Sequence record: MK373795.1
Direction: 5' to 3' (one strand)
DNA from: Escherichia phage vB_EcoS_HdSG1
Length of the DNA: 63,595 nt
How positions within the stretch are numbered: the first letter of the stretch is position 1; each line of letters begins with the position of its first letter. Positions 745 to 2,888 of this stretch are shown piece by piece. Both the position numbers and the translations under genes were made by a program. The notes under the pieces are model-generated. The model was not told the origin of the DNA, did no database searches, and was given only the letters and a program-made list of their open reading frames with translations.

Positions 745-993
745 TTATTTACAAGTTAATAGTACCGCCCAGGTATTATCTGGAAGCGTACCAACTCCGA
801 GTATCTTAAGCTGAAGCGACTTGTTCTGCATGTTGTAGTTGTCCAGTAACTCCTGGGCCGCGGCAGCGGCGTTCGCTTCACCGTTCAGGTTGTAGTCGTT
901 TGCAGTTATTGCACACATACCGAGACCGACCGCTTTGAAGCGCATACCTTTGGATTGAGTCGGTGCTAGTGCTTTGACATGGATAGCGTTCAT
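745..993 (-). CDS. hypothetical protein (terminal-repeat operon)
   Basis: 82-aa ORF, last gene of co-oriented leftward array; no recognisable motif. Confidence 0.6.
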   Translation of the reverse strand: MNAIHVKALAPTQSKGMRFKAVGLGMCAITANDYNLNGEANAAAAAQELLDNYNMQNKSLQLKILGVGTLPDNTWAVLLTCK

Positions 994-1022
994 ATTATTT
1001 ATCTCCGTTACAATTTGAAAGG

Positions 1023-1286
1023 TTAGCAGTTTTTTAACAGGTTGATGAAGCCCACCAGCGTGGACGCGGTTGCAACCAGGCGGCCCATAGTATGCAATTC
1101 CGCGTGAACTTTACCGTCGTCAAATACAGTTAAATAAACGTTAAGACCATTGCAACGGACGCGATATTTGCGCGAGTTATTACCGAAAGTTTCTAGCTCT
1201 GCGGTGATAGTCGCAAGATTAGCTATACGTTTGCCGATAATGCGGCGAGTGATAGTGGACTGGTTTAATACTGTAGACATAATCAT
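1023..1286 (-). CDS. hypothetical small protein, ITxRIIGKR-motif paralog A
   Basis: 87-aa ORF; RBS AGAGGAA; N-terminal STITRRIIGKRIANL...AEL aligns with SQITKRIIGKRLYQL...AEK of CDS 2583..2888. Confidence 0.65.
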   Translation of the reverse strand: MIMSTVLNQSTITRRIIGKRIANLATITAELETFGNNSRKYRVRCNGLNVYLTVFDDGKVHAELHTMGRLVATASTLVGFINLLKNC

Positions 1287-1311
1287 TTCCTCTGTTAACT
1301 ATGCGAAGTGC

Positions 1312-1340
1312 ATATTATTGCCCACTGTTACTATGGGCAA
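1312..1340 (-). promoter_or_regulatory. sigma70-like promoter overlapping a palindromic motif
   Basis: Minus strand reads TTGCCC, 17-nt spacer, TAATAT, about 25 nt upstream of the 1286 start; overlaps palindrome ATTGCCCA-N9-TGGGCAAT at 1317..1342. Confidence 0.4.
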
Positions 1341-1348
1341 TGTATATG

Positions 1349-1513
1349 TCACTCAGCGGACACATATTCTAACGCTTCTGATAGTGTAGCGAAGTGACCA
1401 TCACTCACCAGATTAATAGCGTACTCAAGTTCATCTCGGGTCAGGTTGCGAAACTTGTTACGGATGTGATAGCAACGACCGCGATAAATAAGCTGGAAAT
1501 AGTTGCGTTCCAT
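1349..1513 (-). CDS. hypothetical protein (54 aa)
   Basis: Internal ATG of track ORF 1349..1669 chosen at 1513 because of RBS AAGGGGA and no overlap with upstream gene. Confidence 0.5.
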   Translation of the reverse strand: MERNYFQLIYRGRCYHIRNKFRNLTRDELEYAINLVSDGHFATLSEALEYVSAE

Positions 1514-1523
1514 AATTATCCCC

Positions 1524-1769
1524 TTATGCAACGATGAACGCGTAACCGCTTTGATCCGGGAGTTCACCACCGGCAACAATCTCAAATTCAACACCCGCTC
1601 TAGCGTTGAACTTTTTGATAAGCTCTTCCGCTGCGGCGCGGTGGTTGCCGTAAACACCCAAATCGTCACGCCACGTGATAGTCAAGGAGCCGTTCCAGCC
1701 TGTTGCTTTTACGCGCGGGTTACGGGTGGCAGTTGGGTTAACGAATTTGGTGATGATAGCTTGAGCCAT
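1524..1769 (-). CDS. hypothetical protein (81 aa)
   Basis: ORF with RBS GGAGTAATTATC before ATG at 1769. Confidence 0.65.
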   Translation of the reverse strand: MAQAIITKFVNPTATRNPRVKATGWNGSLTITWRDDLGVYGNHRAAAEELIKKFNARAGVEFEIVAGGELPDQSGYAFIVA

Positions 1770-1774
1770 GATAA

Positions 1775-1960
1775 TTACTCCGGTAAAATTACAGTGACGT
1801 TAATATTTGCAAGGCGAGCGCACTCGCGGAAACCTTTTACATAAGCATCCATTTCGTCATAGGATGCGAAAGTTGCGTCCGGGACTGGTCCGTTGTTAAT
1901 ATTCACGCAATATTCGTGTTCGTCCAGGTCAACCCAGCAATTCAGAACGATAGTTTCCAT
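1775..1960 (-). CDS. hypothetical protein (61 aa)
   Basis: ATG at 1960 preceded by GGGGGG; the track start at 1993 is a TTG; stop of upstream tiny ORF lies 1 nt before this ATG. Confidence 0.55.
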   Translation of the reverse strand: METIVLNCWVDLDEHEYCVNINNGPVPDATFASYDEMDAYVKGFRECARLANINVTVILPE

Positions 1961-1961
1961 A

Positions 1962-2036
1962 TTATTTGCCCCCCGTATAGTAAAGACCCGCAACTATTGG
2001 AGCTCCGAACACTAAGAAAGCTAATAAGTAGAACAT
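1962..2036 (-). CDS. tiny hydrophobic peptide (24 aa, MFYLLAFLVFGAPIVAGLYYTGGK)
   Basis: Hand-translated; RBS AAGGGGG 9 nt upstream; starts 2 nt after stop of 2039..2506 and ends 1 nt before next ATG; below the track length cutoff. Confidence 0.45.
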   Translation of the reverse strand: MFYLLAFLVFGAPIVAGLYYTGGK

Positions 2037-2038
2037 AA

Positions 2039-2506
2039 TTAGTTACCCCCTTTATTGTTGAGCCCGTTGAATTTACGCCATGCGTAGAATTCAATCGTTG
2101 CATTATTAATATTCCAACCATTAGCTTTCGCAAGGTCACGCACGTTACCAATAGTTGGCACACTATCAGGTAACATATTATCCAGGGCATTCCAAACGTC
2201 TGCACATTTACCTTTAATTGGGCGGCGGACCCCGTTGCGCGTTTTACCTTTGGCGGGAGCGACCGGAGCTTGTTGTGTGGTCACTTCCACGACAGTCGCT
2301 TTATCAGCTTCCACCAGATCGTTAGCTGCCTTATTAACGGCGCTTTCGCTGAACCAGTAGCGACCACCGTCTTCCATAGGTTCCTGGTGAATAAAGCTAT
2401 TTGCTGTCGCTGTGTCTACGTCCAGAACCTTTTTCAAGGCACGGCGAGCGTTAGACATGTTGGTAAAAAAGCGAGCATCTTTTGCTACGCGAGTGATAGT
2501 AACCAT
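2039..2506 (-). CDS. hypothetical protein (155 aa)
   Basis: ORF in operon; start taken at MVTITRV (ATG 2506, GGAG upstream); alternative ATG at 2521. Confidence 0.65.
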   Translation of the reverse strand: MVTITRVAKDARFFTNMSNARRALKKVLDVDTATANSFIHQEPMEDGGRYWFSESAVNKAANDLVEADKATVVEVTTQQAPVAPAKGKTRNGVRRPIKGKCADVWNALDNMLPDSVPTIGNVRDLAKANGWNINNATIEFYAWRKFNGLNNKGGN

Positions 2507-2547
2507 TGTGAATATCTCCATGTTGTTCTAGCGGATTGCTAGTGGGA

Positions 2548-2569
2548 GCCCACTGTTACAATGGGCAAC
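2548..2569. promoter_or_regulatory. palindromic motif GCCCACTGTTACAATGGGCAA (second copy, operator-like)
   Basis: Near-identical to 1317..1342; intergenic, immediately upstream of the 2506 start. Confidence 0.4.
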
Positions 2570-2582
2570 CATTAGCACGCTA

Positions 2583-2888
2583 TTATTGTTGAATAGCTTT
2601 ATCTATCATTGCGATGAAGCAGAACACAGACCAAAGGCTATTCGCTTGGCATACTGCGCGACCATACATTACGCTATAAGAGCTGACAGTGCCGTCCTCG
2701 TTAATGCGAATATATAACGCGGTGCTGGAATACTTTTCGTTGCCCGGGAGCATTACCAGATACTCATCATAATCCCAATCCCCGCTGACTTTTTCCGCTG
2801 TAAGGCCCAGCTGATACAGGCGCTTGCCAATAATGCGCTTAGTAATTTGAGATTGGGACATGGAACGCGGTAAGTAGATAATGGACAT
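2583..2888 (-). CDS. hypothetical small protein, ITxRIIGKR-motif paralog B
   Basis: Start at internal ATG 2888 (MSIIYLPRS) with RBS AAGGGAGA; first gene of the repeat operon; paralog of 1023..1286. Confidence 0.65.
   Translation of the reverse strand: MSIIYLPRSMSQSQITKRIIGKRLYQLGLTAEKVSGDWDYDEYLVMLPGNEKYSSTALYIRINEDGTVSSYSVMYGRAVCQANSLWSVFCFIAMIDKAIQQ

Follow-up and report, generated by a model that had tools for sequence, protein, structure and literature searches.

We conclude, with a probability of roughly 60%, that eight small genes at positions 745-2888 of coliphage vB_EcoS_HdSG1, a Nonagvirus (9g-like), constitute the accessory, promoter-proximal portion of the early transcription arm in a 9g-like siphovirus and are carried at both ends of the genome. 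The window analyzed was the whole stretch of 63,595 nucleotides. The eight open reading frames, here called A to H, are all on the minus strand and lie within a direct terminal repeat of 3,363 bp, of which their coding span takes up 2,144 bp (64%). The genes are probably among the first that the phage expresses.

An earlier note had described eight co-oriented small ORFs in the repeat, and this description was borne out. Each ORF is preceded by a Shine-Dalgarno site. When the genes were compared with those of 7-8 relatives, pooled pN/pS values were 0.32 for A, 0.16 for B, 0.28 for C, 0.31 for D, 0.25 for E, 0.07 for F, 0.11 for G and 0.13 for H, while an overlapping antisense ORF at 1503-1844, which served as a negative control, gave 1.36. 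The pattern of substitutions indicates that all eight are genuine genes under purifying selection.

The genes are closely packed, with four intergenic gaps of 1, 2, 5 and 10 nt and two larger, structured gaps of 76 and 68 nt. Abutting stop and start codons had been claimed and are present, including the TAA-t-ATG junction (1958-1964), but none overlap as had also been claimed. Because of the two large structured gaps, the array is not a simple operon; it consists of three translationally coupled blocks, H, G-F-E-D-C and B-A, with conserved hairpin/promoter-like cassettes between them and a possible internal promoter. The earlier note also proposed that the array is co-directional with, and directly upstream of, the replication block. 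The direction is as proposed, but reading on from the terminator of the right copy (60953..60927) one crosses ~1 kb of non-coding DNA and seven small genes to reach the primase gene (54560-57109); the terminator, the non-coding DNA and the small genes together insulate the module from it.

The first cassette (1305..1355, minus strand) carries the palindrome TTGCCCA-N9-TGGGCAA overlapping a sigma70-like TTGCCC-17-TAATAT. It can form a 17 bp RNA hairpin (fold z = -3.39), and 47 bp of it are invariant in 9 genomes. The second copy (2540..2590, minus strand) has a degenerate -10 and an RNA hairpin of ~21 bp (z = -4.16); in phage FritzHoffmann its -10 is intact (AAATAT). Reading the palindromes as simple internal promoters was only partly tenable, as the copy upstream of B is complete and the copy upstream of G has no -10 in most genomes. 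In phage T4, PeSL cassettes made up of a sigma70-like promoter and a stem-loop recur between early gene blocks. The HdSG1 cassettes resemble them in layout and flank positions at which gene content varies among relatives, but there are only two copies, and a role in recombination would be speculative. Hairpins also lie between the early genes of T7, where they are RNase III processing sites, and the putative HdSG1 hairpins may be compared with these.

We then considered signals at the two ends of the module. The earlier note had placed a promoter at 2964..2992 (minus strand, TTGCAT-17-TACTAT). This element is conserved, its -10 reading TACTAT or TATTAT, but it agrees with the consensus at only 7/12 positions, and the scan did not report it. 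A better-scoring leftward candidate, ATGACT-16-TATAAT at 3191..3218 (minus strand), matches at 10/12 positions, is also conserved and corresponds by position to the BPROM-predicted promoter of the 9g record. Between these two leftward candidates are three conserved 26 bp direct repeats (GCCGnAAATACCAGGTAnC; 3069..3144), which are candidate operator sites. A genome-wide scan for the sigma70 consensus gave no enrichment near the repeat and so could not be used as evidence of timing. At the other end of the array, the intrinsic terminator that had been claimed is real. It was found by the scan at 685..721 (minus strand) as a GC-rich stem (721..695; 11 bp, 8 GC pairs) followed by the T-tract TTTCGTTTTT; the stem is invariant in 8 genomes and far more stable than shuffled sequences (z = -4.35), and the HdK1 and SP8 records annotate the same terminator. 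An Rfam search of positions 1-3700 found no family.

Transcription would begin with gene H (2583..2888, 101 aa), which together with B (1023..1280, 85 aa; basic, pI 10.0) forms a near-orphan paralogous family (phrog_13865). In an exhaustive HMMER search of 1.84 billion representatives, a B+H profile matched only 6 clusters, none with a Pfam domain. Gene G (2039..2506, 155 aa) encodes a basic protein of two domains, and structure prediction gave its C-terminal domain an HTH-like three-helix fold; among the protein segments searched, this domain was commonest in other siphoviruses of ~58-62 kb. F (1962..2036) is a hydrophobic micro-protein of 24 aa (GRAVY 1.34) that is annotated in FritzHoffmann only, yet it is kept in 8/8 relatives with 39.5 synonymous versus 9.5 non-synonymous differences. 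E (1775..1960, 61 aa) is acidic (pI 4.15, net charge -8) and was found in Nonagvirus only, while C (1349..1513, 54 aa) is shared with Seuratvirus. D (1524..1769, 81 aa) and its paralogue A (745..993, 82 aa) belong to the phrog_3199 family.

The A/D proteins are predicted to share a beta3-alpha-beta2 domain that is widespread and confined to phages, with hundreds of uncharacterized relatives in sipho-, myo- and podoviruses. A/D homologues occupy the class I early region of those T7-like phages of Klebsiella and Pseudomonas that were examined, with the genome end on one side and the RNAP gene on the other, and in phiKT the A/D gene adjoins a gp0.2-like gene. HdSG1 further resembles the T7-like class I early region in having small genes, probably read by host RNA polymerase, near the end proposed to enter first, and structured hairpins between genes. 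It differs in having no phage RNA polymerase and in the length of its repeat, since T7-type terminal repeats are far shorter (160 bp in T7 itself, 266 and 428 bp in two SP6-like phages) and non-coding.

Pfam and NCBIfam gave no matches for any of the eight proteins, PHROGs gave families of unknown function only, and PDB sequence searches, run with single proteins as well as profiles, produced no credible match. Hits to Symfoil and protein A were rejected as artefacts of repeats or low complexity, since there was no single stretch that passed. The statement that no gene has a recognizable domain was therefore correct for sequence searches but not for structure prediction, given the HTH-like fold of G. 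Homology to structural virion proteins, which had been set beforehand as an argument against the proposal, was not found, as no similarity to virion structural families appeared in Pfam, PHROGs, NCBIfam or the PDB, by sequence or by fold. Two published annotations of these genes did not hold up. The D homologue of 9g had been called TetR-like, but the predicted fold is not the all-helical TetR fold and there was no support from Pfam; the note "similar to bacterial oxidoreductases" in the 9g record was not reproduced.

The gene content of the module is mosaic and accessory in character. B is absent from 9g, JenP1, SE1 and SP8 (4/8 relatives), H is replaced in FritzHoffmann, and extra genes are present in BRET, SP8 and JenP1. 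A and D occur as divergent alleles between genomes that are otherwise 90-98% identical; the divergent alleles of A, at 62-66% identity, are those of 9g, SE1, SP8 and JenP1. In Seuratvirus, a syntenic set of C-like, A/D-like and G-like genes lies at the start of the primase-side arm.

The left copy of the repeat (1..3363) and the right copy (60233..63595) had 0 mismatches when compared with one another. The repeat of HdK1 is 3367 bp; its right boundary is the same and its left boundary is at most 3 nt away. The right boundary of the HdSG1 repeat is also the virion DNA end of 9g, to the same base (9g position 28,243), an end that was mapped by read-start pile-up (Kulikov et al. 2014, PMC4276943). 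At this boundary (3363/3364) the letters are GGGGCGGCTC on the left and TTAGATC on the right, and a block across it (3305..3383) is identical in 9 genomes save two variable positions; this block is probably a terminus or packaging signal. The left boundary is taken from the deposited records of one laboratory, and no read-start hotspot was seen there in 9g (PMC4276943). The ATTTATAAAG motif occurs at the left boundary. Beyond the module terminator, positions 1..684 are non-coding and 84-93% identical across 7 relatives, with no conserved ORF found in comparison with these 7 and with repeated motifs in the stretch.

The early region of 9g has the same genes at 83-100% protein identity and the same physical terminus, although E and F are unannotated there. 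The size of the 9g repeat was left undetermined (PMC4276943), so the first seven or eight genes were not recognized as lying inside it. A second genus provides a parallel case, as Hafnia phage yong3 has an exact terminal duplication of 3,424 bp with equivalent genes, the boundaries of which are placed differently relative to the genes than in HdSG1. The subfamily (Queuovirinae) does not require a large repeat in every member, since that of phage iggy measures only 1,091 bp. Assemblies of Shigella and E. coli isolates also contain near-complete phage genomes, as contigs of roughly 58-60 kb.

We infer the early timing, the use of host RNA polymerase and all of the functions proposed here. The host sigma70 RNA polymerase would read the module as a self-contained unit, starting from one or two promoters in a conserved divergent control region (about 2960-3220), passing through H, then G-F-E-D-C, then B-A, and stopping at the strong terminator (721-685). 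Since the unit is inside the repeat, each virion has two copies, and one comes in with whichever end leads. The promoter candidates of the right-end copy are separated from the physical terminus by about 145-400 bp; should that end lead, H to A would enter and could be transcribed before all else. G would probably be a DNA-binding early regulator and F a membrane peptide. The most likely collective role would be early regulation together with manipulation of host or host-defence functions; a part in host takeover is suggested by the small size of the genes, their position, their mosaicism and the absence of structural homology.

The 9g study had predicted divergent promoters in the untranslated end region of roughly 475 bp. 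It had also proposed that DNA ejection starts with this end and that the early region opens with these genes, which would be transcribed as soon as the DNA is in the cell (PMC4276943). Several points count against our reading, including the one-laboratory origin of the left repeat boundary. The same study inferred that packaging starts at this end (PMC4276943), and by the usual last-in-first-out rule the end would then be ejected last. The left copy has its promoter ~3 kb away from the terminus, with transcription directed toward the end. Searches of the literature turned up no timing data from transcriptomics or proteomics for any Nonagvirus or Seuratvirus, nor any transcriptome or functional work on these genes.

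A tentative alternative, which we consider rather unlikely, is that the module is a counter-defence island whose small proteins inhibit bacterial immunity (restriction, abortive infection and the like) with no shutoff of host macromolecular synthesis. Presence and absence of genes among relatives, and the divergent A and D alleles in particular, are what such an island would be expected to show, and the duplication of two families as paralogues (A/D and B/H), the acidity of E, the spread of the A/D family through early regions of unrelated phages and the varying sensitivity of Nonagvirus phages to defence systems all point the same way. However, PDB searches found no similarity to any known anti-defence protein, and C, E, F and G are strongly conserved and never missing, as would suit core early functions more than genes caught up in an arms race.

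It is less likely still that the module is principally a regulatory switch, in which G, with or without the others, would act as repressor or activator at the divergent promoters, the 26 bp repeats or the palindromes, and would control either the early-to-late switch or the pseudolysogenic carrier state reported for 9g. G is basic with an HTH-like predicted domain, and the control and inter-block regions contain three 26 bp repeats, all conserved, as well as two palindromes. A temperate-like divergent promoter layout and pseudolysogeny were noted in 9g (Kulikov et al. 2014, PMC4276943) and are consistent with a switch, as is the presence of near-complete phage genomes among Shigella and E. coli isolate assemblies. 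Such a switch would explain G but not the remaining seven genes, and the "TetR-like" call published for the D homologue is unsupported.

The comparison with T5 that the earlier note drew on holds for layout but not for gene homology. Like HdSG1, T5 has a long terminal repeat with small early genes. Many of these, dmp, A1 and A2 included, are read in the direction of the left terminus, and the T5 pre-early region encodes the DNA-binding A2 and small membrane proteins, much as HdSG1 has a DNA-binding candidate (G) and a putative membrane peptide (F). On a T5-type reading the repeat would enter first, transfer would pause, and the products would degrade or shut off host functions and be needed for entry of the remaining DNA. 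The genes of the left copy do run toward the terminus, and the 680 bp of conserved non-coding DNA adjoining the module, in which motifs are repeated, could in principle function like the T5 injection stop signal. We nevertheless regard this reading as very improbable. Homology to the T5 pre-early genes (dmp, A1, A2 and the others) was rejected, as none of the 17 proteins had a homologue in the window (the best tblastn match, E 0.088, was outside the module), and phmmer comparisons of the module proteins with them scored below 6 bits. The repeat, at 3.4 kb, is a third of the 10,219 bp, 17-gene repeat of T5, and the short repeat of iggy also counts against this reading. Nuclease, phosphatase or other enzymatic domains were not found in the Pfam and NCBIfam searches, and there was no indication of a pause in DNA entry. 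We give an equally slight chance to the idea that the ~3.4 kb repeat of Nonagvirus and Seuratvirus is a first-step-transfer segment evolved independently of T5, with entry pausing in the 680 bp/ATTTATAAAG-repeat region; G and F would then be candidate products that let the remaining genome enter. If true, two-step genome delivery would be a recurrent strategy of repeat-bearing siphoviruses.

Least credible is that the genes are not early, with middle or late expression, or that they are dispensable passengers in the repeat only because packaging cut sites happen to flank them. The promoter scans were uninformative, and the repeat boundaries of HdSG1 and yong3 differ relative to the genes. Yet all eight genes are under purifying selection, they share the direction of the replication arm and occupy its promoter-proximal end, class I early regions contain A/D homologues, and no gene resembles a structural protein.

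An early accessory module of this kind does not constitute a new category. SPO1 and T5 are the textbook cases of early modules carried in repeats, and for 9g an early role of these genes was already proposed in 2014. The module is like those of SPO1 and T5 by analogy of layout, and unrelated to that of T5 in sequence. In SPO1 (Herelleviridae), small genes with little similarity to known proteins likewise fill most of a direct terminal repeat, the host-takeover module comprising 24 genes in a terminal redundancy of 13,185 bp. SPO1 differs in lineage, host and size, and its products have demonstrated host-shutoff activities, in contrast to the roles suggested for HdSG1. This group of phages lends itself to experiments, as two members that grow on E. 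coli K-12, ChristophMerian and FritzHoffmann, are part of the BASEL collection. If the eight genes are expressed first, they would represent a compact set of host- or defence-directed effectors, and through the A/D domain and the C-terminal domain of G their significance may reach beyond the genus.

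Eight small co-oriented genes had been claimed within the direct terminal repeat of HdSG1, and we found eight minus-strand ORFs at 745-2888, every one with a Shine-Dalgarno sequence. In transcription order this module consists of H (2583-2888, 101 aa, pooled pN/pS 0.13), G (2039-2506, 155 aa, 0.11), F (1962-2036, 24 aa, 0.07), E (1775-1960, 61 aa, 0.25), D (1524-1769, 81 aa, 0.31), C (1349-1513, 54 aa, 0.28), B (1023-1280, 85 aa, 0.16) and A (745-993, 82 aa, 0.32), the values being pooled over phylogenetically non-independent comparisons with seven or eight relatives. As a control, an antisense ORF of 113 codons (1503-1844) gave a pN/pS of 1.36. 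Set against the low values of A to H, this indicates that the annotated strand is the coding one and that the 24-codon F, annotated in one relative only, is a real gene. HdSG1 G has a 4-residue deletion in a disordered linker compared with all relatives examined (155 versus 159 aa), and an ATG upstream of its start, at 2521, lacks a Shine-Dalgarno sequence and is unlikely to be a start codon.

The earlier note described these genes as tightly packed, with stop and start codons that abut or overlap. Abutment was confirmed, while none of the seven junctions overlaps: stop-to-start gaps are 76, 2, 1, 5, 10, 68 and 29 nt in transcription order, and the genes form three coupled blocks (H; G-F-E-D-C; B-A). 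Both large gaps (76 and 68 nt) contain a conserved cassette of ~50 bp, with a promoter-like element, around the palindrome TTGCCCA-N9-TGGGCAA (1305-1355, upstream of B; 2540-2590, upstream of G); apart from the equivalent pair in the other repeat copy, no further site has an exact or near-exact version of the palindrome. The cassette upstream of B includes TTGCCC-17-TAATAT, a possible internal promoter; in the one that precedes G, the -10 is intact in the BASEL-collection phage FritzHoffmann and degenerate otherwise. Alternatively, the cassettes could be processing or stabilising elements. Their RNAs fold into long imperfect hairpins (z = -3.4 at 1305-1355 and -4.2 at 2540-2590, with 0 of 200 shuffles as stable), and they are reminiscent of the promoter-early stem-loop cassettes of T4 and the inter-genic RNase III sites of T7. 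The copies sit at joints where relatives differ in gene content.

At the end of the module, our scan recovered the claimed terminator at 721-685, with an invariant stem and z = -4.35 versus shuffled controls. A sigma70-like element on the plus strand (704-733, TGGACT-18-TATAAT, 10/12 positions) overlaps it and is antisense into gene A. The module had also been placed directly upstream of the replication block. It does head the replication arm, but in the right copy its terminator (60953..60927) is separated from the primase gene (54560-57109) by seven small genes and, next to the terminator, ~1 kb of non-coding DNA. The module is an insulated unit that is not directly fused to that arm. On the opposite arm, just past the repeat, lies a plus-strand gene of 121 aa (3868-4233) whose homologue is labelled "potential sigma factor" in the 9g record.

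The window (63,595 bp) is the genome of Escherichia phage vB_EcoS_HdSG1, a 9g-like siphovirus (Queuovirinae, Nonagvirus); identity in the region is 96% to HdK1 and 88-95% to JenK1, JenP1, JenP2, 9g, BRET, SE1, SP8 and BASEL phages. Positions 60233-63595 are an exact copy of 1-3363. The separately deposited HdK1 genome has a repeat of 3,367 bp with the same right boundary (...GGGGCGGCTC before it, TTAGATC... after it), and the left boundaries of the two genomes, as defined by deposited records only, are at most 3 nt apart. Kulikov et al. 2014 (PMC4276943) placed a physical terminus of the 9g virion DNA at 28,243, on the basis of 91 read starts in a single orientation, and inferred a terminal repeat whose size was not determined; this position corresponds exactly to the HdSG1 repeat boundary. 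Hafnia phage yong3 (Seuratvirus) has an exact terminal duplication of 3,424 bp that holds C-like and G-like genes.

The boundary lies inside a block of ~80 bp (3305-3383; also 63537-63595), essentially invariant in nine Nonagvirus genomes, which is likely a terminase recognition or cleavage signal. Within it, a hairpin (GCCGC-GGG-GCGGC) stands exactly at the terminus. The motif ATTTATAAAG, a possible left-terminus signal, occurs three times in 135 bp (60107-60116, 60140-60149, and 60231-60232 joined to 1-9); its third copy coincides with the left genome end. The 680-bp non-coding part of the repeat (1-684), G-rich on the plus strand, is 84-93% identical among relatives and matched no Rfam family; its segments at about 253-350 and 430-560 hardly vary. 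Just outside the repeat and upstream of the first unique minus-strand gene, ~5 copies of the palindrome TTGCAA(T) fall in an AT-rich stretch (about 60000-60090) that may represent iterons or a promoter/operator region.

The promoter-like element proposed at 2964-2992 is conserved (TTGCAT-17-TACTAT), but it is weak, with 7/12 consensus positions, below the scan threshold. A better candidate, ATGACT-16-TATAAT at 3218..3191, is conserved, has 10/12 positions and corresponds in position to a promoter that the 9g record annotates from a BPROM prediction. Between these two leftward candidates lie three direct repeats of 26 bp (GCCGnAAATACCAGGTAnC, 3069-3144), conserved in relatives, which are candidate operator sites.

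Gene content of the module is mosaic between genomes otherwise >90% identical. B is missing in 4 of 8 relatives, H is replaced in FritzHoffmann, BRET, SP8 and JenP1 have extra genes, and alleles of A and D share 62-70% identity. HNH homing endonuclease genes lie at the module edges in some relatives (JenP1, 1029-1502, opposite strand, beside a divergent A allele; HdK1, 3536-4015, just beyond the repeat), suggesting homing-driven exchange as one source of the mosaicism. T7-like phages carry an A/D homologue in the class I early region, on the stretch that separates the genome end from the RNA polymerase gene; in phiKT it adjoins a gp0.2-like gene. The primase-side arm of Seuratvirus begins, just past the divergent region, with C-like, A/D-like and G-like genes. 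Homologue context and mosaic gene content fit an early accessory region, and we assign a probability of 0.6 to an early accessory module transcribed by host RNA polymerase. That the module serves mainly in counter-defence is a less probable alternative. Contigs of 55-59 kb that represent near-complete Nonagvirus genomes are also present in assemblies from isolates of Shigella sonnei, Shigella boydii and E. coli; either contamination or a carrier or pseudolysogenic state of the kind reported in 9g could account for them.

The claim that no protein has a recognisable domain held for Pfam and NCBIfam searches, which matched none of the eight; structure prediction gives G an HTH-like C-terminal domain. 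PHROGs placed the proteins in families of unknown function, with two paralogue pairs, A and D (phrog_3199) and B and H (phrog_13865). G is basic (pI 9.6), its C-terminal domain recurs in many siphoviruses of ~58-62 kb (Pseudomonas, Vibrio, Xanthomonas and others), and we infer a DNA-binding role for G. A mainly regulatory module is improbable. At least 600 clusters make up the D family, no Pfam domain being present in any of them, and the "TetR-like" label of the 9g D homologue was not supported; this and the domain in G are new. The B/H family is a near-orphan: a search of 1.84 billion representatives yielded 6 clusters. E is acidic (pI 4.15) and found in Nonagvirus only, C is common to Nonagvirus and Seuratvirus, and F is a hydrophobic peptide. 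In Chi-like phages the A/D domain is tandemly duplicated in one protein of ~177-179 aa (Salmonella phage Chi, 2998-3537; phrog_3199), unlike the two separate paralogous genes of Nonagvirus.

Location inside the repeat doubles gene dosage and places one copy of the module on the leading DNA end, whichever that is. In the right copy, leftward promoter candidates lie 145-400 bp from the terminus, so entry of the right end first would make H to A accessible to host RNA polymerase before any other genes; in the left copy, the genes would be read toward the terminus. By the usual last-in-first-out rule, the end packaged first is ejected last. Kulikov et al. (PMC4276943) proposed that the right-boundary end enters first, yet inferred that packaging starts there, which under this rule argues against this end leading.

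The layout parallels the first-step-transfer region of T5, where 17 genes occupy a 10.2 kb repeat and dmp, A1 and A2 are transcribed toward the terminus as in the left copy of HdSG1, and the host-takeover module of SPO1, whose 13.2 kb terminal redundancy carries 24 genes. The analogy with T5 stands for layout and fails for gene homology: 0 of 17 T5 pre-early proteins had a homologue in the window, so the module is not a member of the T5 gene set. A true T5-like two-step transfer is a very unlikely reading. Because the searched literature contained no transcriptome for the Nonagvirus/Seuratvirus group and our promoter scan showed no enrichment of consensus matches in this region, early timing is still something that we infer; that the genes are not early is the least probable reading.

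Overall, the earlier observation was largely right, and its interpretation as a pre-early host-takeover operon is plausible and partly anticipated, since immediate early transcription of these genes from the terminal untranslated region was proposed for 9g (Kulikov et al. 2014, PMC4276943). What is new is that E and F are real genes, that the module is insulated by its own terminator, and that the first eight genes lie wholly within a defined repeat, itself conserved in two genera.
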